A DNA stretch of 64,000 nucleotides from an uncultured Candidatus Saccharibacteria bacterium (GCA_965230925.1 OZ246403.1:3367-67366); one strand, 5' to 3'; counted from the first letter of the stretch, positions 248-57,600 are shown. The notes: generated by a model from the letters alone, not told the origin. Numbers and translations are program-made.

Positions 248-3200
248 GTGAGAAAATCACGCCTTTTTCTGTATCTCGTTATCTTTTCTTTTATTTTTTC
301 TAGTATTTTCCCGACCGCTTTGGCCCAAGGCGTACCTACGGTTATCAGCTATCAAGGTCGTCTCGCTGATTCAAGTGGCAACCTTCTCGGTGGTTCCGGT
401 ACTACTTACTATTTCAAGTTTTCGATTTGGGATAATGCCACCGTTGGTTCTGGCTCCCAGCTTTACCCCAGTAGTTCACCAAGCTCGGTTTCTGCCACGG
501 TGCGGCAAGGTGTTTTTACTACGAGCATTGATGTTTCCGGATACAATTTTAATCGAGAAGATGCGGTTTATCTCCAAGTTGAAGCTTCGTCAGATAATTC
601 CACTTTCCAAACCTTAAGCCCACGCCAGCGTGTCACGGCCTCGGCTTTCGCTGAGCTCGCTGGCGCTGTTTCTGGTACCGGTTCTTCATCCTTTGGTACC
701 ACCACACCCATTACCAATTCTCAAGTGACCGTGGAGGCTACAACCACGACGGCTATTCCGCTCGCGCTTCGTGGCGCCTCTGGCCAAACAGCCAATCTTT
801 TTCAAATTCAAAACGCTTCTGCCTCCAATCTCTTTTATGTTAATTCAAGTGGCGCGGTATTTGCTTCTTCTACTTTGCAAGTTGCAGCAACCACTACAAT
901 TTACAGTGACTTGGTTCTTTCTGGGACGACTAAGTTTAATGGCAATACTTACACCTGGCCGAGTTCAATTGGTGCTGGTAATTTTCTTCAAACTGATGCA
1001 AGTGGTAATTTAACCTGGGCCTCGACTGGTGCTTCAGCTGGTGGTTGGACGGATGGGGGAACCACGGTAAGCCCGACGGCGTCTACAGACTTAATTTCAT
1101 TTACTCAGGGTTCTAGTACTATGTTTTCTGTTTTAGAGAACGCTTATTTTGGACGGACCGCTACAAGTACTTTTGATTCTGCTGGAAACTTGAACCTAGC
1201 TTCGACGGGAGAATATTATATTGGTGGAACGAATGTCCTTGATGCTACCACCCTCGGTTCCTCTGTTCTTGCCTCTTCCTTAACTTCTGTTGGCACTCTT
1301 TCTTCTTTAGCTGTTTCCGGTCTCTCCACCCTAACTGGCGGAATTTTCACCAACAACGCAACTTCAACTATCACCAATCTAACCACCGTCAACGCCACCT
1401 CTACCAATGCCACAACAACAAGACTTGCGATTACTGGTCTTGCTACTCCAGCGGGAACTTTTTTGGCTGTTAATCCAAATGGTCAGGTTATTGCCACAAC
1501 TACGCCGAGTGGTTCCGGCTCTGTTTCATCTGTATCCAACGCCAACGGTACTCTCACTATCTCGCCAACTACCGGTGCCGTGGTTGCTTCCCTCAATCTC
1601 GGCAACGCCAACACTTGGACGGCCCTCCAGTCTTTCTCCAGTGCCTCCTCCTCTCTCTTCTCCAACACTGGCACGGCATACTTTGGAGGAACGGCCACCT
1701 CCACATTCAACTCCGCTGGCGCTCTAACCCTCGCTTCAGCTCTCGCTGTAACCTCAGGTGGTACAGGTGCTACAAGTTTAGACAACCTGATTACTCTCGG
1801 CACTCACACCACTGGTAACTATCTTGCCACTCTTACCAATGCTGGCGGTCTTACCGTCGCTAACTCTGGATCAGAAACGGCTGGTGTCACTATTGCGATC
1901 GACACCGCTAATCCCAACACCTGGACCGGCCTCCAACAATTCACCGCCGCTTCCACCACCAGACTTTCGGTTTATGGGCCAAGTTATTTTGGTGGAACGG
2001 CGACGAGTACTTTTGACACCGCTGGTAATCTCAACCTTGCTTCTGGTGCCGCCTACTCAATTAATGGCACTAGCGTCTTAAACGCCAATACTCTTGGCAG
2101 TGGTATTACCGCTTCTTCCCTTACCAGCCTTGGTACACTTTCCAGTCTCTCCGCCTCCGGCCTCTCCACCCTAACCGGCGGAATTCTCGCGAACAACAGC
2201 ACTTCCACCATCACTAACCTCACAATGGTGAACAGCACCAGTACCAATGCCACTACTACCAACCTAGCAATCTCTGGTCTCGCTACTGCCGCCGGCACCT
2301 TCCTCGCCGTTAACCCCAATGGTCAAGTGATTGCGACCACCACTCCCACTTCTGGCATTATCACGATTGAAGAAAACAACAGCACGGTCACCTCAAGTGC
2401 CACCGTCATCGACTTCCTCGGTGCCGACTTTACGGTCACCGGTGCTTCTGGTGAAGGTGATGTCGCCATTGATTACGCCAACTCTGGTATTACCAGAGTT
2501 GGTCAGAATGAAACTGTCACTGGTAGCTGGACTTTATCTGGTCTTACCACCATGGCCCGAGCCTCCTCCTCTCTCTTCTCCAACACTGGCACGGCATACT
2601 TTGGAGGAACGGCGACTAGCACCTTCGACTCCGCTGGTATTCTCACCCTCATCAACAGTGGTCTCCATGTCTTCGACACCAATGCCAGCCACGATCTGAT
2701 CATCACTCCCGGTTCCGACTTAACCGCTGACCGCATTCTGACCATTACGACCGGTGACTCGGCTCGGACACTCACCTTAACCGGTGACACCTCTCTCACT
2801 GGCACCAACAGTGGCGACGTCACCCTCGCTGGTACGCCTGACTACATCACTATCTCTGGCCAAGTGATCACCAGAGGCACCATCGATATCGGCGATGACA
2901 CCAACTTAGCCGCCACCTATCCACTCATTCTCACCGGTGACACTCTTTCTTCTGCTCTAGCTACCACCTCAAGCAATACTTGGGCGGGGACACAAACTTT
3001 CAATGACATCGTGGTTACCGATGCTACCACCACCAGCTTCACCGTGGGCACCGATTACCTCACTGATATCACTGGTGGTGGCCTTACTCTCTCGGCTAAT
3101 GCTCTCACTGTCGATGATGTTACTCCTACCATGCTCCAAAGTGCTGACTTCGGGGATTTCACTTGCAATGGGACTAGCTGCGCTTTGGACTCTGACTCCA

Positions 3201-6200
3201 TTACTCTCGCCACCGACACCACCGGTAACTATGTTGCTACCCTCTCTTCTTCTGGTTCCATCACTGTCGCTAACTCAGGTTCAGAAAATGCTGCTGTTAC
3301 TGCTAATCTCAATATGGGCAACGCCAACACCTGGACGGCCCTTCAGTCCTTCTCCAATGCTTCCTCTTCTCTCTTCTCCAACACGGGTACGGCATACTTT
3401 GGTGGAACGGCTACCTCCAGCTTCTCTTCCACTGGAGCTCTAACCCTCGCTTCAGCCCTCGGCATCGCGAGTGGTGGTACCAACAACACTTCGTTCTCAA
3501 ATAACTCACTTCTTTTTTATAACGGCACTTCCATTGTTTCTACCTCGACGAGTCCGCTCTATGTTGGAGCAATTGTGGCCACTTCAACAACCGCGACAAC
3601 CACAATTTCTACTGGCGGTCTTGCCGTGGCGACCAACAAGTTAGTGGTACAACAAACTTCCGGCAACGTTGGTATTGGTACAGCCTCGCCCACAACGGGT
3701 CTTGATGTCGATGTGGCGAGCGACTTTTCGGGTGACGTGACCGTTTCTGGCGGCAGCACTCTCACCATTTCTTCTACCGGAGCGATTAATCAAACTGGTT
3801 CTGGTCAAGTGACTTTTGCGGGCAATGTGGATGCGACTAACGGCCTTGATGTGACCAATGCCAATTTTACCGTTGGTGGTAATAAACTCACCGTTGCTCC
3901 GGCCACAGGAAATACTGCGGTTGCGGGAACCATCGCCGTGACCGGTGCCGCAGCTGCTTCTTCCACTCTCCAAGTTACTGGAGCCACGCGACTTTATTCC
4001 ACTCTTACCACCGATGGCGCGCTTACGGCTTCCGCGGCTGGTACTGGTTTGAGTGTCACCAATAACGCCTCAGTCGGCGGTACTCTCGCGGTTACAGGCG
4101 CTGCCACTCTCTCAAATAATCTTGCGGTTACTGGCACATTAAGCGCCGCCGCCACCACGCTTTCTGGTAATTTGGCCATGGGCAGCAATCGCATTACCGG
4201 TCTGGCTAATCCTTCTTCCGACAATGATGCGGCCAATAAAACGTATGTTGACTCTATTGCGCAAGGTCTCTCTCTTAAGGACTCGGTGCGGGTGGGGACT
4301 ACGGCTAATATTACGCTCTCGGGTGAGCAGACGATTGACGGTGTGTCAGTGGTGGCGGGTAATCGGGTTTTGGTGAAGAATCAGAGCACCGCTTCGCAAA
4401 ACGGTATTTATACCGCGGCTTCTGGTGCTTGGTCGCGCTCTACCGATGCCGATGAGAGCAGTGAGGTCACGGCAGGTATGTTCACCTTCATTACTGAGGG
4501 TTCAACCAACGCCAATTCCGGTTGGGTGCTTACCACCACGGGAACAATTACTCTCGGTTCTACCTCTCTTTCCTTTACCCAGTTCTCTGGCGCCGGAAGT
4601 ATTATTGCTGGTACTGGTATGACGAAGAGCGGCAACACCCTTGATGTGGCGGGTACTACCGATCGGATTACAGCTAATGCTGACTCGATTGATATTGCTT
4701 CTACCTATGTGGGTCAAGCTTCTATCACGACCACTGGTGCGCTTAGTTCTGGTTCCATTGGTTCGTCTTTCGGTGCGATTGATATTGGGGCCGATGCGCT
4801 TACGGCCGGAGCGATTTCTGGTACCAATGTTTCAGCCTCTGGAAACTTGGCGATTACTGGCACTAGTGCCTTCACGGGTAATGTGACAATGTCTGGAACC
4901 TTGGCTGTGGCTACGACCACTCTTTCTGGAGACATTGTGATGAGTGGCAAGAAAATTACCGGCCTTGCTGATCCAAGCTCAGCTCAAGAGGCCGCCACCA
5001 AGGCTTATGTGGATTCCGTGGCCCAAGGTCTTACGGTTAAGGAAGCCGCTCGAGGCGCTTCCACCGCCAACCTCACTCTCTCGGGAGAGCAAACAGTAGA
5101 CGGCGTAGCTCTCGTGGCGGGTGACCGTATTTTGGTCAAGAATCAAAGTACTGGATCACAAAACGGTATTTATGTTGTTGCTTCTGGTGCTTGGTCACGC
5201 TCAAGTGATGCGAATGAAAACGGTGAGATCGCTTCGGGAATGTACGTCTTCGTCTCGAGCGGCACCACTCAAGCCAATACTGGTTGGTCGCTTACGACCA
5301 CGGGTTCAATTACGATTGACTCCACCTCGCTTGCCTTCACTCAATTCTCTGGTTCTACCGACATTACGGCGGGTGCTGGTCTGACGAAAACGGGTACAAC
5401 CATTGATATTGTTGGTACGGCCAACCGGATTACGGTTGCGGCCGATGCTATCGATATCGCCGCCACTTATGTTGGTCAGAGTTCAATTACCACAACCGGC
5501 GCACTCGTTTCTGGTTCCATCGCCTCCGGTTTCGGCAATATTAATATCGGCGCTTCAACTTTGGCGGCCGGGGAATCCACCTTCGCGACCACCACCTCTT
5601 TTGGTGATGTGGCTATTGGTCGCACGGCTACCACCACGATTAAGGGTAACTCTGCCACCTCCACCTTTAGCGGGGGAATTAGTTTAGCGGCCGGTAATTT
5701 AAATCTCGCAACCGGTGGCAGTTATCTCATCAATAATATCAATATTTTAAACGCTACAACTCTCGGCTCATCAGTGGTTTCTTCTTCTCTAACTGGCGTA
5801 GGGACACTTGCCTCTGGTGCTATCTCGGCCGGCTTCGGCGCTATTGATATCGGTGCCGATACTCTAGCCGCTGGTGCAACCACCCTCACCACTCTATCTG
5901 CCTCCGGCCTCTCCACTCTAACCGGAGGAATTCTCGCCAACAATGCGACAAGTACCATTACTAATCTAACGATGGTGAATGCAACAACAACCTCCGCCAC
6001 CACCACCAACTTCGCCATCTCTGGCCTTGCTACGGCTGCCGGCACTCTCCTTGCTGTTGATCCAAATGGTCGCGTTGTTGCCACCTCCACTCCTCAAGGT
6101 ACTGTTACCTCCGTCTCCAACTCCAACGGCACTCTCACCATCAGTCCCACCACTGGAGCAGTGGTTGCTTCGCTGAACTTAGGTAATGCTAATACTTGGA

Positions 6201-9200
6201 CGGCGCTGCAAACCTTCTCCTCTGGTCTCCTTTCTACCTCAAGTTCTACGATTACCAGTTTGACGATGGTAAACAGTACGAGCACCAGTGCCACCACCAC
6301 CAATCTCGCCATCTCTGGCCTTGCTACTGCGGCCGGCACCTTCCTCGCGGTTAACCCCAATGGCCAGGTGATTGCGACGACCACTCCCACTTCCGGTATC
6401 ATCACGATCGAAGAAAACAACAGCACCGTTACATCAAGCGCTACCGTCATCGACTTCCTCGGTGCTGACTTCACCGTTACCGGTGCTTCTGGTGAAGGAG
6501 ACATTGCCATTGATTATGCCAACTCCGGTATTACGCGAGTCGGTCAGAATGAAACTGTGACCGGTGCTTGGACTTTCTCTGGCCTTTCCTCTTTCGCTCG
6601 AGCCTCCTCCACCCTGTTCTCCAACACTGGCACAGCATATTTCGGTGGGACGGCCACCTCCACATTCGATTCATCTGGCGTTCTCACTCTAGTTAACTCC
6701 GGCCTCCACCTCTTCGATACCAACAGTTCCCACGATCTCATCATCACCCCTGGCTCCGACTTAACCGCTGACCGGATTCTCACCATCACCACTGGTGACT
6801 CGGCCCGCACTCTTACCTTAACCGGCGACACCTCACTCACTGGCACCAACACTGGTGATGTCACTCTTGCTGGTACTCCTGATTACATCACTATCTCTGG
6901 CCAAGTGATCACTAGAAACACCATCGACATTGGCGATGACACCAACCTTGCTGCCACCTATCCTCTCATCTTAACTGGCGATACTCTGTCTTCCGCTCTT
7001 GCCACCACCTCAAGCAATACCTGGGCTGGTACTCAAACCTTCAACGATATCGTGGTTACCGATGCCACCACCACCAGCTTAACTGTCGGTACTGACTATC
7101 TGACCGATATCACGGGCGGAGGTCTTACTCTTTCTGGTAATGCTCTAACCGTTGACGATGTTACTCCCACCATGCTCCAAAGTGCTGACTTTGGCGATTT
7201 CACTTGCAATGGCACCACTTGTAGTTTAGACAATGATACGGTAGCGGAAGCCGAGCTTGATCTCTCGGCTGTTACCCTCAACGACTTCACCAATGATGCT
7301 GGGTTTGTCACCACCAGTGGCGCCAATACTTGGACCAGTCTACAACAATTTGCCCGGGCTTCATCCACCATGCTTTCCGTTTATGGCCCCGCCTATTTCG
7401 GTGCGACGGCGACAAGTAGTTTCGACACGGCGGGCAATCTCAATCTTGCGAGTGGAGCGGCGTATTCTATTGCTGGAGCAAGCGTTTTGAACGCGACGAC
7501 ACTTGGTTCTAATGTTGTAGCATCTTCACTCACTTCTGTCGGTGCTCTCAATGGCGGCTCCATTACTTCTGGTTTCGGAGCAATTGATATTGGAACAGAC
7601 GGATTTACTGGTGGTAATTTAACCTTATCGGCCACCGGCACCGCCATTTCTCTGGGGGTCGGTAGCACCACCCCTTGGGGTCGCTTCTCGGTAGAACTGG
7701 ATACTTATAACCCAGCGATGGTGGTGGCCAATCAAGGGTCATCATCACCTGCTTTTTACATTGGTGGTGTAAATCAGAACGGTAGGATTGGTATTGGAAC
7801 CAAAACACCGAATGACATGCTAGAAGTGAGTGGTAATATTGCTCTAACTGATGATGGCACAGCTAAAACCATTGGGATTTATCAGGGTTCTTTTGGTACT
7901 GATTTAACCGTTAGGGCAAGTGATAGTGGTGATATTACTGCGGGACATTTAAACTTAACTGCCGGTTCAGCTGGTGGTGGCACCGGCGGTAATGTAAACA
8001 TCACCTCTGGTAATGGGTTTGCTGGTTCTGACGGTAGTATCAACTTAAGTGCTCCTACCACCGGTGGAGCAGTAAACATTGTTGGTCAGATTATGAATAT
8101 TGGTTCGGCGGGAGTTAAGATTACCGCTGATGGTGACGGGGCCCTCACGCTTCTTGGTCTTGGTGACGGAAGTGATGAAAACCTAGTAATCAACTTCGAT
8201 GATACTGCGAACGAGATAGATATCACCTCAAGTACTGGGGTCACTCGCGTAGATTACAACTCCTTAATTATTGAATCGGGAGCACTACAAGTTGACACTG
8301 CCGCCACTGGTGTAAACATTGATACTGACGGCGACGGCATGCTCATTCTTCTTGGTACTTCCACCGGCGCTGATGAAGACCTTCGCATTAACCTCGACGA
8401 TACAGCAAACGTGATCGAGTTTACTTCCACCACCGGTGCGACAGAAGCTCGATTTAGCTCTATTGGTTTGTTGTCTACAGCCTCATCTACCATTGGTGCC
8501 GGTGGAGTGACAACAGGTCTTACTGTTAGCGGTACAGCCACGACTACTCTCGATGTGGTGGTGCTTGGTCAAGACATTCAACTTGGTTCCGCTGGTGTTA
8601 AGATGACTGATGACGGCGATGGAGCCATTACTTTCCTCGGTCTTGGTAATGGTAATGACGAGAGTCTTACCCTTAACCTCGATGACACTTCTAATCAAGC
8701 CGTTTGGACCACGGGCACCAGCATTAGTCTCTGGGATCTCCAGAGTATGGGTCTCAATGCTCTTGAGCTTTCGGTTGGTACCACTTCACCTTGGGGTGAT
8801 CTCTCGGTTGAGATGGACACCGACAGCCCATCATTTGTGGTGGCAAACCAAGGTTCTACCACCCCCGCCTTCTTCATTGGTGGCGTAAACGCTAACGGGA
8901 AAATTGGTATTGGTACCGCAAGCCCTAGCGCAATTCTTGATATCACCGGGGATGTTGTTCAGACTTTCACGGGAACTACGGGAGATGCTCATACCATCAC
9001 GGCTTCTTCTCTGACCACAGGTTCAGCTCTGGTGCTTACTGGGCCTTCGGCAACTGATGAGGGTGTAGACGATGCACTTCTTAAGCTCGTGGGTAATGTG
9101 GAAAACGTTGCTAGCGGTGGGGGGCTCTTTAGTAGCACGGCAACCCTAGAAACCAATAGCGGTACGGTAGGTAATAACGTTTATGTGTCCACGGTAAATT

Positions 9201-10894
9201 CCAATGAGGCCGTGACGGGTACGGGTATTTACAACACCCTCCAGTCTACTGTTGTCAATGGGGTGGTTGGCCAGACAAATTATGGTATTTATAATACGGT
9301 ATCAAAAACTGGAAACGATACTGCTGGTGCGACAGAAACCTACGGTATAGCCAGTTTGGCTTCAAATACTGGTTCTAGTGCGGGTACTAAAAATACTTAT
9401 GGCGGTTACTTCTCGGCTACTGGTAGCACTGGTGGCTCAGCGGTTACTTATGGTCTCTATTCTACCGCATCGGGAGGTGATTTAAATTATGCTGGATACT
9501 TCGATGCGGGTGACGTTGCTGTTGTTACAGGTAATTTATATGTGAGTGCTGGTAATTCCATTGTGACATCTGGAAAATTTGGCGTGGGGAGTAGTACCCC
9601 GTACGCCACGATCTCAGTCACCAATACTGGTTCTGGACCTTCTCTCGTGGTTGAAGACTCAACATCACCTGACACCACACCTTTTATCATTACCGCCGCT
9701 GGTGATGTGGGTATTGGCACCACTACTCCTTGGCGTAAGTTCTCAGTTGACGGCACAGTGAGCTTTCTTAACTTGACCAGCAATACTGGTGCTGTTACCG
9801 CTTCTATTTGTCTTGATTCTAATAATCAGGTAACTCGTAACACGCAAAACGAGACCTGTGTTGCTTCTTCACAACGATTTAAACACAATATTGAGTCGCT
9901 CCCAGAAGGATCAGGTTTGGCGGACCTCATGGACTTGAGACCGGTAACCTTTGAGTATAATGATCCTAATTTAGCTGGTATCCGGTATGGTTTTATTGCT
10001 GAAGAAGTTGAGCAAGTGGATGACCTTTTGGTTGGTTACGATAATGACGGTTTGGTCCACAGCGTGCGGCATTTAAGCATGATTCCATTAATGACCCAGG
10101 CCATTCAGGAGTTGAAGGGTCAGGTAGATATTCTTCAGTTGCAAATTGATGGCGGTGGAGTGGCTGGCTTAGCGCTTAATGCTCCACTCCAAACCAGCCA
10201 GCTAACCGTTGGCGAAATTGTGGCGCTTGATGGGCAAAAAATTACTTTCAATAACGACGTGGTGTTGCTCGGGCGACCGTACTTTAACTCTGATACTGGT
10301 GGCTTCGCCGAGATTGCGGAGGGTGATAAGGAGGTCGATGTGACTTTTGACGAAGAATATTCTGAAGATCCTGTAGTAAATGTAACACTCGCGGCGGATG
10401 AGAATGATGAAGAAGAAATTTTTGACGCTGATATTCGTTACTTGGTGACCGAGAAGGGAACTACTGGCTTTACGATTAAGCTCAACAAAAATGCGCCGGA
10501 GAAATTGATGTTTAACTGGATTGCTCTCGCGGTGAAGGACGCGAAAACTTTCCACTCGGAAATGATTGAGGGGCTCACCTTGCCAAGTGATGACAACGAC
10601 AACAATGGTAGTGGTGGTGGTAATAATGAAGAACAGAATGAAAATAATAATGAGGAAAGCCAAAATGATCAGAGTGAGCCCGAGCCGCCTGTTGATGAGA
10701 CAAATGATGAGCCTGTTGATGAGCCGAGCGATGAACCCGAACCCCCGACAGATGAACCAGAACCCCCTGCTGACGAGCCCGCAGATGATGAAGAAGTGAG
10801 CGAGTCGGAACCACCAGCCGAAGAAGTGGAAAATTCTGACGATTCAGGTGATAATGGCGGATCAGAAGAACCAGCTGAACCAGAAAATCCATGA
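248..10894 (+). CDS. Giant secreted Thr/Ser/Gly-rich fibre/adhesin protein (3548 aa). It has an N-terminal signal peptide and many internally repeated beta-rich modules. Phage tail-fibre-like repeats (ITGLA(N/D)PSS..DAA(N/T)K.YVDS) are present. A C-terminal peptidase S74 / endosialidase-type intramolecular chaperone auto-processing domain (about 9815..10150) is followed by an acidic D/E/P-rich tail (about 10570..10894).
   Basis: One continuous 10.6-kb ORF. The signal peptide is MRKSRLFLYLVIFSFIFSSIFPTALAQG. The motif SSQRFKHNIESL...FIAEEVEQVDDLLV...MIPLMTQAIQEL matches the Ser-Lys dyad region of tail-spike chaperone domains. The tail is rich in DEPEPP. The protein is paralogous to 54692..59992. 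Confidence 0.85.
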   Translation: MRKSRLFLYLVIFSFIFSSIFPTALAQGVPTVISYQGRLADSSGNLLGGSGTTYYFKFSIWDNATVGSGSQLYPSSSPSSVSATVRQGVFTTSIDVSGYNFNREDAVYLQVEASSDNSTFQTLSPRQRVTASAFAELAGAVSGTGSSSFGTTTPITNSQVTVEATTTTAIPLALRGASGQTANLFQIQNASASNLFYVNSSGAVFASSTLQVAATTTIYSDLVLSGTTKFNGNTYTWPSSIGAGNFLQTDASGNLTWASTGASAGGWTDGGTTVSPTASTDLISFTQGSSTMFSVLENAYFGRTATSTFDSAGNLNLASTGEYYIGGTNVLDATTLGSSVLASSLTSVGTLSSLAVSGLSTLTGGIFTNNATSTITNLTTVNATSTNATTTRLAITGLATPAGTFLAVNPNGQVIATTTPSGSGSVSSVSNANGTLTISPTTGAVVASLNLGNANTWTALQSFSSASSSLFSNTGTAYFGGTATSTFNSAGALTLASALAVTSGGTGATSLDNLITLGTHTTGNYLATLTNAGGLTVANSGSETAGVTIAIDTANPNTWTGLQQFTAASTTRLSVYGPSYFGGTATSTFDTAGNLNLASGAAYSINGTSVLNANTLGSGITASSLTSLGTLSSLSASGLSTLTGGILANNSTSTITNLTMVNSTSTNATTTNLAISGLATAAGTFLAVNPNGQVIATTTPTSGIITIEENNSTVTSSATVIDFLGADFTVTGASGEGDVAIDYANSGITRVGQNETVTGSWTLSGLTTMARASSSLFSNTGTAYFGGTATSTFDSAGILTLINSGLHVFDTNASHDLIITPGSDLTADRILTITTGDSARTLTLTGDTSLTGTNSGDVTLAGTPDYITISGQVITRGTIDIGDDTNLAATYPLILTGDTLSSALATTSSNTWAGTQTFNDIVVTDATTTSFTVGTDYLTDITGGGLTLSANALTVDDVTPTMLQSADFGDFTCNGTSCALDSDSITLATDTTGNYVATLSSSGSITVANSGSENAAVTANLNMGNANTWTALQSFSNASSSLFSNTGTAYFGGTATSSFSSTGALTLASALGIASGGTNNTSFSNNSLLFYNGTSIVSTSTSPLYVGAIVATSTTATTTISTGGLAVATNKLVVQQTSGNVGIGTASPTTGLDVDVASDFSGDVTVSGGSTLTISSTGAINQTGSGQVTFAGNVDATNGLDVTNANFTVGGNKLTVAPATGNTAVAGTIAVTGAAAASSTLQVTGATRLYSTLTTDGALTASAAGTGLSVTNNASVGGTLAVTGAATLSNNLAVTGTLSAAATTLSGNLAMGSNRITGLANPSSDNDAANKTYVDSIAQGLSLKDSVRVGTTANITLSGEQTIDGVSVVAGNRVLVKNQSTASQNGIYTAASGAWSRSTDADESSEVTAGMFTFITEGSTNANSGWVLTTTGTITLGSTSLSFTQFSGAGSIIAGTGMTKSGNTLDVAGTTDRITANADSIDIASTYVGQASITTTGALSSGSIGSSFGAIDIGADALTAGAISGTNVSASGNLAITGTSAFTGNVTMSGTLAVATTTLSGDIVMSGKKITGLADPSSAQEAATKAYVDSVAQGLTVKEAARGASTANLTLSGEQTVDGVALVAGDRILVKNQSTGSQNGIYVVASGAWSRSSDANENGEIASGMYVFVSSGTTQANTGWSLTTTGSITIDSTSLAFTQFSGSTDITAGAGLTKTGTTIDIVGTANRITVAADAIDIAATYVGQSSITTTGALVSGSIASGFGNINIGASTLAAGESTFATTTSFGDVAIGRTATTTIKGNSATSTFSGGISLAAGNLNLATGGSYLINNINILNATTLGSSVVSSSLTGVGTLASGAISAGFGAIDIGADTLAAGATTLTTLSASGLSTLTGGILANNATSTITNLTMVNATTTSATTTNFAISGLATAAGTLLAVDPNGRVVATSTPQGTVTSVSNSNGTLTISPTTGAVVASLNLGNANTWTALQTFSSGLLSTSSSTITSLTMVNSTSTSATTTNLAISGLATAAGTFLAVNPNGQVIATTTPTSGIITIEENNSTVTSSATVIDFLGADFTVTGASGEGDIAIDYANSGITRVGQNETVTGAWTFSGLSSFARASSTLFSNTGTAYFGGTATSTFDSSGVLTLVNSGLHLFDTNSSHDLIITPGSDLTADRILTITTGDSARTLTLTGDTSLTGTNTGDVTLAGTPDYITISGQVITRNTIDIGDDTNLAATYPLILTGDTLSSALATTSSNTWAGTQTFNDIVVTDATTTSLTVGTDYLTDITGGGLTLSGNALTVDDVTPTMLQSADFGDFTCNGTTCSLDNDTVAEAELDLSAVTLNDFTNDAGFVTTSGANTWTSLQQFARASSTMLSVYGPAYFGATATSSFDTAGNLNLASGAAYSIAGASVLNATTLGSNVVASSLTSVGALNGGSITSGFGAIDIGTDGFTGGNLTLSATGTAISLGVGSTTPWGRFSVELDTYNPAMVVANQGSSSPAFYIGGVNQNGRIGIGTKTPNDMLEVSGNIALTDDGTAKTIGIYQGSFGTDLTVRASDSGDITAGHLNLTAGSAGGGTGGNVNITSGNGFAGSDGSINLSAPTTGGAVNIVGQIMNIGSAGVKITADGDGALTLLGLGDGSDENLVINFDDTANEIDITSSTGVTRVDYNSLIIESGALQVDTAATGVNIDTDGDGMLILLGTSTGADEDLRINLDDTANVIEFTSTTGATEARFSSIGLLSTASSTIGAGGVTTGLTVSGTATTTLDVVVLGQDIQLGSAGVKMTDDGDGAITFLGLGNGNDESLTLNLDDTSNQAVWTTGTSISLWDLQSMGLNALELSVGTTSPWGDLSVEMDTDSPSFVVANQGSTTPAFFIGGVNANGKIGIGTASPSAILDITGDVVQTFTGTTGDAHTITASSLTTGSALVLTGPSATDEGVDDALLKLVGNVENVASGGGLFSSTATLETNSGTVGNNVYVSTVNSNEAVTGTGIYNTLQSTVVNGVVGQTNYGIYNTVSKTGNDTAGATETYGIASLASNTGSSAGTKNTYGGYFSATGSTGGSAVTYGLYSTASGGDLNYAGYFDAGDVAVVTGNLYVSAGNSIVTSGKFGVGSSTPYATISVTNTGSGPSLVVEDSTSPDTTPFIITAAGDVGIGTTTPWRKFSVDGTVSFLNLTSNTGAVTASICLDSNNQVTRNTQNETCVASSQRFKHNIESLPEGSGLADLMDLRPVTFEYNDPNLAGIRYGFIAEEVEQVDDLLVGYDNDGLVHSVRHLSMIPLMTQAIQELKGQVDILQLQIDGGGVAGLALNAPLQTSQLTVGEIVALDGQKITFNNDVVLLGRPYFNSDTGGFAEIAEGDKEVDVTFDEEYSEDPVVNVTLAADENDEEEIFDADIRYLVTEKGTTGFTIKLNKNAPEKLMFNWIALAVKDAKTFHSEMIEGLTLPSDDNDNNGSGGGNNEEQNENNNEESQNDQSEPEPPVDETNDEPVDEPSDEPEPPTDEPEPPADEPADDEEVSESEPPAEEVENSDDSGDNGGSEEPAEPENP
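2200..3200 (+). repeat. About 1-kb intragenic direct repeat, copy 1 (near-identical copy at about 6245..7245)
   Basis: The DNA and protein blocks NPNGQVIATTTPTSGIITIEENNST...FGDFTCNGT(S/T)C are almost identical in both copies. Confidence 0.8.
4110..5625 (+). repeat. Tandem duplication of an about 760-bp (about 253-aa) module, two copies (about 4110..4869 and 4870..5625)
   Basis: Each copy contains ITGLA(N/D)PSS..DAA(N/T)K(T/A)YVDS(I/V)AQGL...VKNQST.SQNGIY..ASGAWSRS.DA...FTQFSG. The two copies are about 75-80% identical. Confidence 0.75.
6245..7245 (+). repeat. About 1-kb intragenic direct repeat, copy 2 (pair of 2200..3200)
   Basis: Same block, about 90% or more nucleotide identity judged by eye, located 4.04 kb downstream of copy 1. 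Confidence 0.8.
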
Positions 10895-11250
10895 AAAAGC
10901 GTTTAATCATTATTATAGTAATCCTTATAATTATCGCTGCAGGGGCCTACTTTCTGAGCGGTTTCTTTAAGGTTGAGGTTAGTTCTGACTCGGTGGCAGC
11001 CACGGCGAATGAGTCTCGCGGTATTGTGGAGCGGGTGAGCAAACTAGTGATTTTGCCTGAGGGTGAGAACCCGGTGGTGGCCACAGTCAATGATCTCCGA
11101 CCGCTCGCGGATAAACCCTTTTTCAAGAACGCGAAAGTGGGTTACAAACTTCTTATTTACGAGAAGGCGGGGCGCGGTGTTCTCTATGATCCAGTAAAAA
11201 ACAGGGTGGTAGAGATGGCCAGCATTAGTCTTGGCAAATTGCCAGAATAG
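10891..11250 (+). CDS. Small membrane-anchored hypothetical protein (119 aa, N-terminal TM helix)
   Basis: The ATGA start overlaps the stop of the giant gene. The N-terminus MKKRLIIIIVILIIIAAGAYF is hydrophobic. No recognisable domain. Confidence 0.5.
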   Translation: MKKRLIIIIVILIIIAAGAYFLSGFFKVEVSSDSVAATANESRGIVERVSKLVILPEGENPVVATVNDLRPLADKPFFKNAKVGYKLLIYEKAGRGVLYDPVKNRVVEMASISLGKLPE

Positions 11251-11266
11251 TTTAAAATATCAAACC

Positions 11267-11725
11267 ATGGAAACAGAAACAATAGAAATTAAAAAGAAGG
11301 GAGGGAATGTGTGGTGGGTCATTTTATTAATCGTCATTTTGGTGCTCCTCGCTGGTTGGTGGTGGAAAACGGACGGTAATTTGTTTTCTTCCTCAGTCTC
11401 CAGTAATTATCAGGCGGTATTCTTGAGCAATAATCAAGTGTATTTTGGTAAATTAAGCGATCAGAATTCGCGCTACCCCAAGCTCACTGATATTTACTAT
11501 TTGCAGGTGCCGCAATCACTCCAACCCGGTCAGTCAAACAACAATATTAATCTCGTGAAGCTCGGCAGTGAGCTACATGGTCCCGCTGATAAAATGGAAA
11601 TTAATCGCGACCACATCCTTTTTGTCGAGGATCTCAAGACAGACTCCCAAGTTGTTCAAGCTATTGAGCAATATAAGAAAAATCAAGCTACCACTCCCGC
11701 TCCTGCTACCCCTGCCGGTAACTAA
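11267..11725 (+). CDS. Hypothetical single-pass membrane protein (alternative start at 11231)
   Basis: The ORF has a TM segment WWVILLIVILVLLAGWWW followed by a soluble domain. No family recognised. Confidence 0.45.
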   Translation: METETIEIKKKGGNVWWVILLIVILVLLAGWWWKTDGNLFSSSVSSNYQAVFLSNNQVYFGKLSDQNSRYPKLTDIYYLQVPQSLQPGQSNNNINLVKLGSELHGPADKMEINRDHILFVEDLKTDSQVVQAIEQYKKNQATTPAPATPAGN

Positions 11726-11744
11726 AATCTAGATTTGAGGCAAA

Positions 11745-11778
11745 ACAAAAACCCCGAGCGTAACCTCGGGGTTTTTGT
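11745..11778 (+). terminator. Rho-independent terminator hairpin (CCCCGAG-cgtaac-CTCGGGG followed by TTTTT)
   Basis: A perfect 7-bp GC-rich stem (11751-11770) is followed by a T-run at 11771-11775. Confidence 0.6.
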
Positions 11779-11787
11779 TACAATTTA

Positions 11788-13104
11788 ATGGCAAAGGTGA
11801 CAAGGAGATTAATAAGTGTTTTTTCAGTCGTTGCGATTCTGGCAATTTTTTCTGTCAGTTTTCGCTTTGGTTTCGCTGAAGAGTTTACTTCTTCCAGTTT
11901 TCGCGTGCTTGATCCGGTGCTGGCGCCGTCTGGTTTTTCGAGTTCAACCAGCTTTCAATTGTTTTCTAGCTTAGCTGAACTCGCCATTGGCACGAGCACT
12001 GCCTCAAGTTTTACCCTTGGTTCTGGTTTCTTGCTTTTCCCACAAGTTGATACGCCCGCTGTCTCGGCCACGGCCGGTGCGCAGCAAGTGGCGCTCTCTT
12101 GGACAGCCTCGACCGGTTACCTCGGTTGGACGGTAAATGGTTACGATGTGGGTCAGGCCACGGTTTCTGGTGGGCCGTATTCTTACACCTCGCTCGGAAA
12201 TGTTTTGAGTTCCACTCGCACTGGTCTTACCGCGAGCGTGCCTTATTACTTTGTGATTCGCCCCCTTGATGTCTTTGGTAATGCTCTTGCCACCTCCACT
12301 GAGGTTACGGCTACACCCACAGCATCTTCGGGTGGTGGCGGAGGTGGTGGGGGCGGCGGTAGCAGTAGCGATACGGAAGTGATTTTAATCGGTCGTGCTT
12401 ACCCGCTTAGCCGTGTAACCGTGCTAAAAGATGGTCAAGTTGCAATCACCACCATTGCGGGTCCGGATGCCAAGTTTAATATTACTGTTGGCGATCTTAA
12501 TGCTGGTAGCTATATCTTTGCTGTGTATGCTGAAGATGAAGCGGGTCGCCGTTCAAGTTTGTTTACTTTTCCGCTCACGCTGACAAATGGTGCTTCAACC
12601 CAAATTAGCGGCATTTTTCTCGCGCCTACGATCGCGGTTGATAAGTCTGAAGTGAAGCAGGGCGATAATATTGCGATCTTTGGTCAGGCTCAAGCGACTT
12701 CAAGTGTGACCATTGCCGTAAATTCACTACAACCTTTCTTTGCTACTACCACCGCTGATGTTGATGGTGTTTATCTTTATAATTTCGACACCGTTGTGTT
12801 GGAGCTCGGCGATCACAGCACCAAGGCTAAGTCGACAGTGGGGAATGAGATTTCTTCTTTCAGCCAAACCGTGGCCTTTAAGGTTGGCGATCAAAACGTG
12901 CTTCCCACGCCCGGCGCTTGCCCGGCGAAGGCTGATCTCAATAATGATTGCCGAGTGAACCTTGTCGACTTCTCCATCGCGGCGTATTGGTATCACCGGC
13001 CGCTCTCGGTTGATTTTGCAGTTAAGGAGAAGGATAAATTAAATGGCGACAATCAGATAAACTTGGTCGACTTTAGTATCATGGCGTATTATTGGACGGG
13101 TTAA
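11788..13104 (+). CDS. Secreted protein with an FN3/Ig-like region, a poly-Gly linker and a C-terminal tandem dockerin-like Ca-binding repeat pair (12931..13095)
   Basis: Signal peptide present. GGGGGGGGGG linker present. Two repeats, ADLNNDCRVNLVDFSIAAYWY and KLNGDNQINLVDFSIMAYYW, fit the dockerin loop pattern D-x-N-x-D-x-x-VN-x-x-D. Confidence 0.55.
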   Translation: MAKVTRRLISVFSVVAILAIFSVSFRFGFAEEFTSSSFRVLDPVLAPSGFSSSTSFQLFSSLAELAIGTSTASSFTLGSGFLLFPQVDTPAVSATAGAQQVALSWTASTGYLGWTVNGYDVGQATVSGGPYSYTSLGNVLSSTRTGLTASVPYYFVIRPLDVFGNALATSTEVTATPTASSGGGGGGGGGGSSSDTEVILIGRAYPLSRVTVLKDGQVAITTIAGPDAKFNITVGDLNAGSYIFAVYAEDEAGRRSSLFTFPLTLTNGASTQISGIFLAPTIAVDKSEVKQGDNIAIFGQAQATSSVTIAVNSLQPFFATTTADVDGVYLYNFDTVVLELGDHSTKAKSTVGNEISSFSQTVAFKVGDQNVLPTPGACPAKADLNNDCRVNLVDFSIAAYWYHRPLSVDFAVKEKDKLNGDNQINLVDFSIMAYYWTG

Positions 13105-13856
13105 ACATGGCAAAACTTTATTTTATTGAAGAAAATGGTTTGGTAAAACTGCTTCTCGATTCGCCTAACGAGAAGGTTAACTCTGTGGCTGGAGAAATTA
13201 CTTTGTCGGCAGGGACGGAGGTGCGCCAAGTACTTGAAGCTAATTCACTTATTAACTTCTGGTTAGACAAACCGGCAGTTAAAGAAAATAAAATAATTTT
13301 TTCTGGCATTATTCCGGGTGGTTATCAGGGTGCCGGTGGGCAAATTTTGAGTTTTTCTTGGCAGCCGCTACCAAATGTGCGCCTCTCTCGGGTGGAAGCC
13401 ACAATTGATGAAGAGCAAGTTCTTCTGCATGACGGTGTGGGTACGCCGGCTAAATTGCTGGTTGAACCACTCGTTTTATCAAGTGTTTCCGCTGCGGCAG
13501 AAGAATTAAATGATGAAATTCCACCGGAAACATTTACTCCGCTTATTTCCTCTGATCCCGCCCTTTTCGACGGACAAAAGTTTTTGGTTTTTCAAACTCA
13601 AGACAAGCAATCTGGTATTGATTACTACGAGGTTAAGGAAGGTCGCGGTGAGTGGTTGCGCGTTGAGAGTCCGTATCTTTTGCCGGATCAAACGGTGGCT
13701 GAGAGAATTTTGGTAAAAGCCGTTGATTTGGCGGGCAATGAACGAGTTGTCACAGCGTTTTCCCCCAGCGTCTCGTATCTTTATTATATCGGTGGCGGTA
13801 TAATTGTTTTGGTCCTATGTCTCATCGCGTGGAAAAAATTGTTTTCTCGTTCTTAA
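13092..13856 (+). CDS. Membrane-anchored (C-terminal TM) protein with an N-terminal cohesin-like domain and an Ig-like (VDxAGN) domain; alternative start at 13107
   Basis: GEITLSAGTEVRQVLEANSLINFWLD...IIFSGIIPGGYQGAGGQILSFSWQ resembles a cohesin beta-sandwich. C-terminal TM segment IGGGIIVLVLCLIAW. Shares the IDYYE...AVDLAGN module with the next gene. Confidence 0.4.
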   Translation: MDGLNMAKLYFIEENGLVKLLLDSPNEKVNSVAGEITLSAGTEVRQVLEANSLINFWLDKPAVKENKIIFSGIIPGGYQGAGGQILSFSWQPLPNVRLSRVEATIDEEQVLLHDGVGTPAKLLVEPLVLSSVSAAAEELNDEIPPETFTPLISSDPALFDGQKFLVFQTQDKQSGIDYYEVKEGRGEWLRVESPYLLPDQTVAERILVKAVDLAGNERVVTAFSPSVSYLYYIGGGIIVLVLCLIAWKKLFSRS

Positions 13857-15532
13857 TTGCGTTAGCTGTTTTTCTTCCGGCGCAACTTTTCGCGGCCACT
13901 CTTTCTGTTTCCCCACCAAGTGGAGCGTATTCTGTGGGGCAACTTTTTTCTGTTCAGGTAAATGCGGGTAGTAGCGATAAGGCGCTAAATGCCATTGCGG
14001 GCACACTCAGCTTCCCGGCCGATACGCTTGAGGCCGTGGCGGTTAATAAAACAAACTCCATCCTTTCTTATTGGGTGACTGAGCCGGTGATTACTAATAC
14101 AACCGGGACGGTTAAGTTTGAGGGCGTGGTGCCAAATCCTGGTTTTATTGGTCCTACTGGCCAAGCTGTTAGTATTACTTTCCGCGGCAAGAAGCCGGGC
14201 AGTGCGCCCATTACTTTTGCCAGTGGTTCTATCCTCGCCAATGATGGCGCGGGGACCGAGATTCTTAGTGGTATGTCGGGCGCCACGTTTACTATTGTGG
14301 GCACTCCGGTGCCTCCACCGCCGGTAATTCCTGCCGTGACACGAGTGCCGGCGGCGCCCAAGGTAACTTCAAGTACTCATCCTGATCCTGAGGTTTGGTA
14401 TGCAAGCAGTGCGCCCGCTTTTGCTTGGTCGCTTGGCGCCGATATTGATGGGGTCAACTTTGTGGGTGATAAGATTGCCGACAATAATCCGGGCACTAAG
14501 TCCGATGGTCTGATCTCGAAGTATCAATACGACGATGTGTCTGATGGACAGTGGTATTTCCATCTCCGTCTGCGCAATGCTGCTGGTTGGGGCGAGATTA
14601 CCCACTTTGGCTTCAAGATCGACACAACGAAGCCGGAACAATTTGAGGCAAGTCTCTTACCGCGTCAGGATGCTGGTGAGACCGAGCTTGGTGTTTTGGT
14701 GGCCGCCAGCGATAAAACCTCCGGAATTGACCACTACGAATTTAGTCTAGACGGCAGTGAGGCGGTAATTTGGGAAGATGATGGTAATCATTTATATCGA
14801 TTTAATGCTTTGCCAGGTAACCGCACCCTTATTGCTCGTGCCGTAGACAAGGCGGGGAATTATTTGGAGAAAGAACTTACGTTTACAGTAGACGGTTTAA
14901 CGCCGCCAGTGCTTGATCCTTTGCCGCCAGAATTGCCATATGGCGACACCTTAGGCATTACCGGTAGCACATACCCTAATCTCGAGGTGTATCTCACGGT
15001 CGCTGGTGAGAGAGGTGAGAAGTATGATTACCGCCTCTCAAGTGATCCGCTTGGTAAATTCTCGCTCGCGGTGGAGCAGAAGTTGAAGGAAGGAGAATAT
15101 CGCGTGAGCGCTTTTGTCATGAACGATCGCGGTTTGAGAAGCGACAATAGCGCGCCGGTAATTGTGAAAGTTAAACTCTCTTCATTTTGGAAGCTGAGCC
15201 TTATCACCACCAATGTGCTGGCGGTTACTATACCCATTCTTGCTCTCCTGCTCCTCCTGTTCTTCTTAATTTGGTATGCTTGGCACAAAATGCGAGCCTT
15301 TAAGAAACGATTACGCAAAGAGACGCGTGAGGCGGAGCAAGCTCTACATCAAGCCTTCGATCTCTTGCGAACTGATTTAGTAGAAGGGGTTGATCGTTTG
15401 GAAACGGCTGGCGATAAACGCGAGTTAACCCGCGATGAAAAAGCTTTGCTCCGCCAATTCCGCAAATCGCTCGACGAAGCCGAAAAATTCGTCCGCAAAG
15501 AAATTATGGACATCGAGAAGGAGGTAGATTAG
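13817..15532 (+). CDS. Secreted, C-terminally membrane-anchored protein with a cohesin-like domain (about 13890..14300), Ig/FN3-like domains, a TM helix and a charged cytoplasmic coiled-coil tail
   Basis: Signal peptide present. LSVSPPSGAYSVGQLFSVQVNAGSSDKALNAIAGTLSFPADTLEAVAV...TVKFEGVVPN...SITFRGKKPGSAPITF fits cohesin. TM segment VLAVTIPILALLLLLFFLIWYAW. The tail is K/R/E-rich and helical. Confidence 0.45.
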   Translation: MSHRVEKIVFSFLIALAVFLPAQLFAATLSVSPPSGAYSVGQLFSVQVNAGSSDKALNAIAGTLSFPADTLEAVAVNKTNSILSYWVTEPVITNTTGTVKFEGVVPNPGFIGPTGQAVSITFRGKKPGSAPITFASGSILANDGAGTEILSGMSGATFTIVGTPVPPPPVIPAVTRVPAAPKVTSSTHPDPEVWYASSAPAFAWSLGADIDGVNFVGDKIADNNPGTKSDGLISKYQYDDVSDGQWYFHLRLRNAAGWGEITHFGFKIDTTKPEQFEASLLPRQDAGETELGVLVAASDKTSGIDHYEFSLDGSEAVIWEDDGNHLYRFNALPGNRTLIARAVDKAGNYLEKELTFTVDGLTPPVLDPLPPELPYGDTLGITGSTYPNLEVYLTVAGERGEKYDYRLSSDPLGKFSLAVEQKLKEGEYRVSAFVMNDRGLRSDNSAPVIVKVKLSSFWKLSLITTNVLAVTIPILALLLLLFFLIWYAWHKMRAFKKRLRKETREAEQALHQAFDLLRTDLVEGVDRLETAGDKRELTRDEKALLRQFRKSLDEAEKFVRKEIMDIEKEVD

Positions 15533-54670: not shown

Positions 54671-54691
54671 TTAGGTCACAACTGAATATTG

Positions 54692-57600
54692 ATGAAGAGG
54701 TTTTTAGCCAAGAATATTTTTCTGTGTTTGGCAATCTGCGTCTTCGCTCTCGTGCTTACTCTTTTTCCGAGCAGGCAACTTTTTGCTGCTCCAAATTTAC
54801 AAATTAATTATCAAGGCAAGCTTACAGACTCAAGCGATGTGGCTGTTGCTGACGGTAATTACAGCATCGTTTTCCGCCTTTATACCGTAGCGAGCGGCGG
54901 ATCAAATATTTGGAGTGAGACTCAAACTGTGGCCGTAACCAACGGTCTTTTCAGTGTAATGCTTGGCACAACCACCAGTCTTGCGGCAATCGACTTCAAT
55001 CAAACCCTTTATCTTGGGGTAAATGTGGCCGCCGATGGCGAAATGACTCCACGAAAAGTTTTTGGCACGGTGCCAGCCGCTTTCGCTTCCACTTTTGTCA
55101 GCGGCTCAACCTCCACCCCATCATCTTTTGGCACCACCACGCCCATTGCTAATACTCAAGTAACCATTGAGGCCACCTCAACGACCGCGATTCCGTTAAA
55201 TATTAGAGCAAACGCTAGTCAATCAGCGAACTTGTTCCAAATTCAAAACGCCTCAGCATCCAATCTTCTTTATGTTAATTCTTCTGGTGGTTTGTTCGCC
55301 TCTTCCACCCTTCAAGTTACTGGCAATAGCACCTTTTATTCCTCAATCACTGGAACAAGTTTGACCCTTAGCGCCACCGGCACCGCCGCCTCCCTTGGTG
55401 TGGGTACTACCACTCCTTGGGGGCGCTTCTCAGTGGAGCTAGATACTTATAATCCCGCTTTTGTGGTTTCTAACCAAGGTTCTTCAACGCCAACGCTTTA
55501 CATCGGTGGTGTAAACCAGAATGGCAATATCGGCATTGGCACCACGACACCAAGCGAGAAGCTCGCCCTCTATGATGGTAATTTCCTCCAATCACCAGGT
55601 AATCCGCGTCTTGTTGGAACAATAACGAGCAGCAATACCAACATGAACGATGTGGCTGTGCAGGGAAAATATGCCTACGCAATTAGCGGCACAAGCCGGC
55701 TCTATGTTTACGATGTGTCTAATTCTGCGTCCCCGGCGCTTGTTGGTTCTTCCGCCGCTTTGGCTGGAGATGCTGTGGTTGTGGCTGGGCGTTATGCGTA
55801 TACAGTCGATGCATCGGGGGGCACTTTTAGAATCTTTGATGTTTATAATCCAAGTAACCCCGTTCTTGTTTCTTCTCTTTCTACTGGTGCTTTTTCTTCA
55901 CCGCGGGATCTTGTGGTTTCTGGTTCCTATGCTTATGTTGGGGCTTCTGGTGGACTTATGATTATCAACGTAGGGAACCCCGGAAAACCAGTTACTGTTG
56001 CTACGGCCGCCGCCGGTGCCGACATTGATAATGTGAGAATCCAGGGTAATTATGTTTACCTTTACGATGATGGTTCTGGGGGAACAAACATTATTGATGT
56101 TTCTAACCCAACTAATCCATCGTACATTACTCAGATCGGCACAGCTTCAACCCACGATGTTTCAGGGCGTTATTTTTATGTCGCGGACGATGTTAGCCAG
56201 CAATTCCAGATTTATGATATCTCTAATCCCGCTTCTGCTTCTTTGGTTGGTTCGATAAGTAGTGCCGTAAGTTCAACAGCGCACAACGGAGAACTCATTG
56301 TGGCTGGTCGTTACGTTTACCTTGCTGACCCTGGTAATGACACGATAAAAGTTTTTGACGTGGCTTCCTCCACGGCCCCGGTTCTTGTTGGCTCAACCAG
56401 CGTCACTGGAACTGATTCCCTATCTCTCGCGGTGGCGGGGCGCCATCTCTATGTTCTCAACGACAACTCCGCTGCCAATACCAGCCTTTCCATTTTTGAT
56501 ATTTCCGGTGTTGAAGCCGCTTCGCTTACGGCGCACTCTCTTGAAGCGGGTCGTCTGCAAGTTCGAGAATCGGCCGCCATTCAAGGTTCACTTTCTGTTA
56601 GCACTTCGCTACAAGTTGGAACCGGCGGCATCTTCAGTGCCGGACCAATTGCTGTTAGTGTGGCCTCTTCTACCGAGGGTAGCCCCGTTTCGGCCTCCTT
56701 CCAGGGTCGAGTTTCAATAGGCACTTCAACCCCGTCTTCAATTTTAACTATTTGGGGGCAAAGTACTGGCTCGACCCCTAATCTCATTATTGCCAATAGC
56801 GCTTCCACCACTCTGTTCACGGTTTTAGACAGTGGTAATGTCGGCATCGGCACTACCTCTCCTTACGCTAAGCTGTCGGTGTTAGGAGAAACAGTGTCGA
56901 CTTATTTTACCGCCACCTCTACTACGGCAACATCTACCTTCGCTGGCGGTTTAAGTGTGGGTACTAATTCTAGTGTTGCCAATTTTACTTTGTCTAATGC
57001 AATTGACAATAGTTTTCCTGTCGCTTTTATCTACCGCAGTGATTCTGGGCAAGATGTTGGCATTGACGAGGAACTTGGGGCGATTTATTTCGATAGTAAT
57101 GATGGTGGAGTAAGTTCCGTTGACGCTTCTGTCGTTCTAAAAAGTTTTGCTTCTGGTGGCCACACCACAACCAGAAAAGGTGGGTATTTCACTATTTCAA
57201 CCAAGCCATACGGAGCGTCAAATAATGCTTCTGCTGCTACCGAGAGGTTTAGAATTACTGATACTGGCAGTGTTGGTATCGGCACTACCTCTCCTTACGC
57301 TAAACTTTCAGTGGTTGGTCCGGTCGTTGCCGAATATTTTCATGCTACTTCTACTACCGCCACCTCCACTTTCAGTGGGGCTATCGCCTTGCCTGCCACC
57401 ACGGCTGCTGGCGCCGGAGTCGTTACTGTTGCTGGGACAAGGTTTTTGCATAATTACGGTACGGGTAGTGTGTTTTTGGGCTCCGAGGCCGGGAATCTTA
57501 CTAGTAGCGGTTTTGGGCAAAACGTTGGTGTTGGTTACCAGTCCCTAACCCAAGTAACTACAGGATATCAAAACACTGCCGTTGGCTATGATTCCATGTC

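Follow-up and report, generated by a model that had tools for sequence, protein, structure and literature searches.

A conserved Patescibacteria gene cassette encoding a dockerin-bearing protein and two single-cohesin membrane proteins, frequently found downstream of giant fibre genes

Gene content of the locus

The window analysed in this study, a 64-kb stretch of DNA from an uncultured Candidatus Saccharibacteria bacterium, contains a run of six genes, g0 to g5, all encoded on the plus strand (Table 1), and every element named in a preliminary description of this region was found in the sequence where it had been placed. The five genes following the giant fibre gene g0, referred to as the cassette, had been described as tightly overlapping; the tight packing was evident, while true overlap occurs only at the g0/g1 (−4 nt) and g4/g5 (−40 nt) junctions, the remaining distances being +16 nt (g1/g2), +62 nt (g2/g3), +2 nt (g3/g4) and +9 nt (g5/murD). 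No terminator-like sites above shuffle background were detected between the cassette genes. The surroundings are chromosomal, with murD, murC(-like) and secA in the window, and in the window's clade the cassette adjoins murD and murC.

Table 1 Genes and protein features of the locus; nucleotide positions are counted from the first letter of the window.
Feature	Position (nt)	Strand	Position (aa)	Description
g0	248–10894	+	3548 aa	Giant secreted fibre protein
g0 Peptidase_S74	9866–10021	+	3207–3258	Intramolecular chaperone; Pfam PF13884
g0 CTD	10202–10561	+	3319–3438	H-type-lectin-like
g0 tail	10562–10891	+		Acidic, Pro/Glu-rich; directly after CTD
g1	10891–11250	+	119 aa	TM at aa 5–23 and ~90-aa domain of unknown fold
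g2	11267–11725	+	152 aa from ATG	Small membrane-anchored protein; TM
g3	11788–13104	+	438 aa	Secreted dockerin-bearing adaptor
g3 domains		+	1–29; 30–87; 88–178; 179–194; 195–278; 279–368; 378–438	Signal peptide; conserved N-module; FN3; Gly linker; Ig (Big_6); Ig; dockerin
g3 dockerin module	12919–13101	+	C378 to G438	Two Ca-loop/helix repeats
g4	13107–13856	+	249 aa	ATG start; single-cohesin membrane protein
g4 cohesin	13107–13484	+	1–126	
g4 Ig module	13539–13763	+	145–219	
g4 TM	13770–13844	+	222–246	
g5	13817–15532	+	571 aa	Single-cohesin membrane protein
g5 signal peptide		+	1–26	
g5 cohesin	13895–14302	+	27–162	
g5 beta-sandwich / Ig / Ig		+	183–270 / 271–360 / 361–455	
g5 TM	15215–15271	+	467–485	
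g5 tail	15272–15529	+	486–571	Conserved charged helical cytoplasmic tail

The N-terminus of g0, hydrophobic at aa 6–24, is a cleavable-type signal peptide, and the protein's Thr/Ser/Gly/Ala-rich repeats are internally duplicated (for example, 84% between DNA positions 2203–2502 and 6244–6543). Near the C-terminus, the S74 domain scored above threshold (PF13884, 38.3 bits against a gathering threshold of 22, E 1.7e-9), and the g0 motif SSQRFKHNI shows a Ser-x4-Lys spacing that may correspond to the catalytic dyad of endosialidase chaperones. The CTD of about 110 aa recurs in giants from at least 35 related loci, with identities of 35–56%. Against the H_lectin profile PF09458, the window CTD reached 19.4 bits, below the gathering threshold of 24, covering profile positions 2–66 of 67, and 19 of 37 CTD homologues matched at E ≤ 0.01 (best 7.3e-6); a comparison with PDB sequences gave no match. 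The giant encoded upstream of the cassette carries no membrane or sortase anchor of its own. A second giant in the window (54689–59992) has an S74 domain above threshold, but neither a CTD nor a following cassette, whereas g0 combines S74 and CTD and is followed by the cassette.

Homologues of g1, which has no Pfam or NCBIfam match, were present in 114 of about 160 loci, in one to three tandem copies between the giant gene and g3, and also 3' of CTD giants lacking the cassette. The ORF of g2, a protein unrelated to g1 and likewise without a Pfam or NCBIfam family match, opens at TTG 11231, while gene callers take the ATG; g2 is a clade-specific accessory gene, present in 13 loci only, all of them close relatives.

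Dockerin and cohesin domains of g3, g4 and g5

Window g3 is 50–80% identical to more than 100 homologues, with 50–66% identity across classes and named candidate phyla. Among the 58 members of the g3 family, Big_6 was found in 54 (window g3: Pfam E 6e-9) and fn3 in 21, and the family profile matches FN3 and dockerin structures in the PDB. Conservation within g3 peaks in the dockerin (mean column identity 0.76), which displays the architecture of type I dockerins, namely a tandem repeat of about 22 residues in which an EF-hand-like Ca loop with ligand positions 1, 3, 5, 9 and 12 precedes a helix. Repeat 1 (D383-L-N-N-D-C-R-V-N-L-V-D394, then FSIAAYWY) has all five ligands in place (D383, N385, D387, N391, D394). 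Repeat 2 (K417-L-N-G-D-N-Q-I-N-L-V-D428, then FSIMAYYWTG) presents K417, N419, D421, N425 and D428, with Lys in place of Asp at position 1. Asp occupies this position in only 39% of family sequences, and the family logo displays the canonical Ca-ligand positions. Cys378 and Cys388 co-vary (both present in 54 cases, neither in 59, one alone in 4), which fits an extracytoplasmic disulfide.

Window g3 scored 18.4 bits against PF00404, below the gathering threshold of 22.9, whereas 48 of its 58 relatives matched at E ≤ 0.01 (best 3.9e-9), and the family profile matched the solved type I dockerins 2y3n_B (E 3.6e-5), 5nrm_B and 4fl4_A over both repeats. Neither g4 nor g5 of the window gave a PF00963 match, even with the cut-off relaxed to E ≤ 1, whereas 26 of 60 g5 relatives matched at E ≤ 0.01 (best 2.3e-8); a precomputed PF00963 match was found in only 2 of the 120 g4 relatives listed, and the g4 profile matched the solved cohesin 5aoz_A (E 0.0014). 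The cohesin fold is a nine-stranded jelly-roll beta-sandwich with cohesin topology that superposes on type I, II and III cohesins at 2.1–2.7 Å rmsd. The domain assignments made earlier are backed by family-level matches and by fold, where g3 carries a dockerin and g4 and g5 a cohesin each. HMMs, fold and synteny with fibre genes, the three checks by which the preliminary description could have been refuted, all spoke for it.

The two cohesin proteins are paralogous (hhalign probability 100%, E 8e-47) and have in common the cohesin domain and an SGIDxYE...AxDxAGN Ig module, in line with the shared Ig-like modules, the C-terminal TM anchors and the charged g5 tail noted before; this tail of about 86–91 aa contains 21 K/R and 20 D/E and is predicted to be helical. 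The g4 start formerly placed at 13092 was revised, as the TTG at that position is unlikely and ATG 13107 is preferred. No N-terminal signal peptide was found for g4 in this genome or its clade, so its surface exposure is uncertain and its cohesin may not lie outside the cell.

Distribution and linkage to giant genes

Relatives of g3 were found in at least 518 GTDB species representatives, and those named belong to the Patescibacteria, the lineage indicated by the names on homologues and loci. Across 116 loci with a g3 dockerin, a single dockerin gene is followed by two (77 loci) or three (29 loci) single-cohesin TM genes, the remaining loci being truncated contigs. Co-occurrence of dockerin and cohesins and their gene order are strict across lineages. 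The conserved core consists of g3-g4-g5, usually together with g1, with g3-g4-g5 being far more constant than its neighbours, and in Patescibacteria the cassette ranks with the better-conserved sets of surface genes. The arrangement had been considered to be without precedent; it is in fact the rule in more than 100 loci, and we found no paper describing this gene set.

The neighbourhood was assessed at the 63 loci for which 4 kb or more of upstream sequence was available. At 50 of them (79%), the cassette is closely preceded by a same-strand ORF of 900 aa or longer, while large ORFs within 10 kb on the downstream side were seen in roughly a quarter of loci. The upstream giant carries the CTD at 35 of the 63 loci, and 32 of these 35 CTDs end no more than 2.5 kb from the g3 start. 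In the reciprocal search, g3 was located downstream of 29 of 55 CTD giants. As 13 of the 63 cassettes have no giant upstream and 26 of the 55 CTD giants have no cassette, the coupling is strong but not obligatory. An S74 domain was detected in the giants of only about 14 of 81 non-redundant loci, using a profile that was insensitive. The suggested synteny with fibre genes elsewhere therefore holds for the giant ORF, but S74 is not the conserved partner; the recurrent feature of the giants is instead the H-type-lectin-like CTD with its Pro/Glu-rich tail.

These data bear on two rival readings of the gene set. As phage tail fibres and spikes typically carry S74 intramolecular chaperone domains, the locus could be read as a phage-derived module, i.e. 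a prophage tail fibre with its assembly or attachment proteins, which we consider highly improbable given that no g3 relatives were found in 2.9 million IMG/VR contigs and 50,697 GenBank phage records, that the neighbours murD, murC-like and secA are housekeeping genes, that the cassette is conserved across all the above species representatives, and that most partner giants showed no S74 with the insensitive profile. The chances of a miniature cellulosome-like display of carbohydrate-active enzymes seem just as slim, even though the module types are identical and a metaproteome study, which reports that a CPR organism expresses proteins with cohesin and dockerin domains, read them as a cellulosome (10.1101/2021.08.21.457207). 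Pfam and NCBIfam revealed no enzymes, catalytic domains or CBMs in g1–g5, and the loci contained no multi-cohesin scaffoldin, each having one dockerin gene and one cohesin per protein. Within the 64-kb window, the family dockerin HMM matched g3 only, leaving no second dockerin, and cohesin HMM matches were confined to g4 and g5. The cellulosomal combination of a multi-cohesin scaffoldin, several dockerin enzymes and a CBM was thus absent, a caution against taking cohesin or dockerin matches in CPR genomes as evidence of cellulosomes.

Proposed role and comparison with known systems

We favour the interpretation, with an estimated probability of about 0.55, that the cassette is a conserved Patescibacteria cell-envelope module in which a non-cellulosomal cohesin-dockerin pair holds or organises giant fibres. 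Following export by Sec, g3 would plug its C-terminal Ca2+-type dockerin into the cohesins of g4 and/or g5, which would be held in the cytoplasmic membrane by their C-terminal TM helices and would raise their cohesins on Ig-like spacers (one in g4, three in g5). The FN3/Ig adaptor g3 would thereby be fixed in the wall zone, with its conserved N-module and FN3 free for a further partner, the likeliest candidate being the giant secreted fibre whose gene lies directly upstream. The cassette may retain, organise or nucleate the assembly of this fibre on the envelope, plausibly as one component of the apparatus by which these epibiotic bacteria attach to hosts or surfaces. The coiled-coil tail of g5, which is cytoplasmic and conserved, hints at a connection to the cell interior. 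Dockerin-cohesin binding, the contact of g3 with the giant or its CTD, and all functional consequences are what we infer from the sequences. The modular surface scaffold envisaged in the preliminary description is supported in its domain identities, TM anchors and giant-gene synteny, but not by g4, whose missing signal peptide also counts against our interpretation.

In both cohesin paralogues, strands 3, 5 and 6 and the strand 8-9 loop (xNAxxG, FW..P, FSGIIPGGY, L[LA]NDGxGT) are best conserved, and classical cohesins bind dockerins via the 8-3-6-5 sheet (published complexes, e.g. 1OHZ). This conservation, together with that of the dockerin and the co-occurrence of dockerin and cohesin genes in one operon, counts in favour of the fibre-holding module, while window sequences below the Dockerin_1 and Cohesin gathering thresholds and the presence of one dockerin against two to three cohesins per locus count against it. 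If the domains did not pair, which strikes us as rather improbable, the cohesin-like domains would be generic beta-sandwich spacers or adhesin modules, and the dockerin-like repeats a Ca2+-dependent stabilising or ligand-binding module, e.g. for a wall polymer or host ligand.

It is possible, albeit somewhat unlikely, that g3-g4-g5 forms a wall-zone complex (spacer, wall or S-layer tether) independent of the giant fibre, with adjacency reflecting clustering or co-regulation of surface genes. The constancy of the core relative to its neighbours, the cassettes without giants and CTD giants without cassettes, the position beside murD and murC in the window's clade, and the unusual conservation of g3 across classes, as expected of a housekeeping structural part, all agree with such autonomy. 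However, the frequency of same-strand giants upstream far exceeds that of large ORFs downstream, nearly all upstream CTDs end close to g3, and the contrast between the two giants of the window argues for a giant-cassette link. Two further points count against the fibre-holding module. The H-type-lectin-like CTD could bind wall glycans alone, without g3, and in g0, where S74 lies N-terminal to the CTD, autocleavage would leave the mature fibre without its CTD, a poor fit to a simple CTD-as-anchor model. A more far-reaching version of the fibre-holding module, speculative and on the whole unlikely, would have the near-symmetric g3 dockerin engage the g4 and g5 cohesins at once, the N-module/FN3 capture the lectin-like CTD of the giant and the g5 coiled coil link to the interior, yielding a lineage-wide, previously undescribed TM complex that would anchor and assemble giant lectin-tipped fibres at the core of epibiont host attachment.

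Little is known about envelope building and host attachment in Patescibacteria (CPR), and roles have yet to be assigned to most of their conserved surface proteins. Among the recognisable parts of the locus, the dockerin, both cohesins and the lectin-like fibre end lend themselves to biochemical tests. If the proposed binding is true, cohesin-dockerin biology would extend from enzyme display to membrane-anchored surface architecture, and a concrete handle on giant CPR fibres would become available through recombinant domains, antibodies and cryo-ET landmarks.

The cassette resembles cellulosome anchoring scaffoldins, such as SdbA, OlpB and Orf2p of C. thermocellum (SLH) and ScaE of R. flavefaciens (sortase signal), in its cell-bound cohesins and in the two-repeat Ca2+-type dockerin at the C-terminus of a secreted protein. 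In contrast to these, its anchor is a C-terminal TM helix, joined in g5 by the cytoplasmic coiled-coil tail, there is one cohesin per protein and one dockerin client per locus without enzymes or CBMs, the hosts are non-cellulolytic ultra-small Patescibacteria, and the sequences fall below Pfam thresholds. Non-cellulosomal modules, including the Archaeoglobus fulgidus cohesin 2xdh and the GH84/GH33 toxin-complex cohesins 2w1n, 2vo8 and 2o4e of Clostridium perfringens, occur on soluble enzymes or proteins of unknown role, whereas the cassette cohesins belong to integral membrane proteins whose conserved operon is linked to genes for giant fibres. Like phage S74 fibres and tailspikes, g0 and the second giant are long repetitive fibres in which PF13884 scores above threshold close to the C-terminus. 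Both, however, are chromosomal, signal-peptide-bearing cellular proteins, and beyond S74 g0 extends into a lectin-like domain followed by an acidic tail.

Giant adhesins are retained by LapE, LapG and LapD in the case of Pseudomonas LapA, and by TpgA in the case of Acinetobacter AtaA. The cassette may be analogous to these systems as an adjacently encoded, dedicated envelope set keeping a giant fibre on the cell. There is no relation in sequence or fold, however, and the Pfam or NCBIfam matches of g1–g5 include no family of T1SS proteins, LapG-type proteases or c-di-GMP receptors. Unlike the LapA and AtaA systems, the cassette would reside in a presumably monoderm envelope, where the proposed link to the fibre would be made by a cohesin-dockerin pair.

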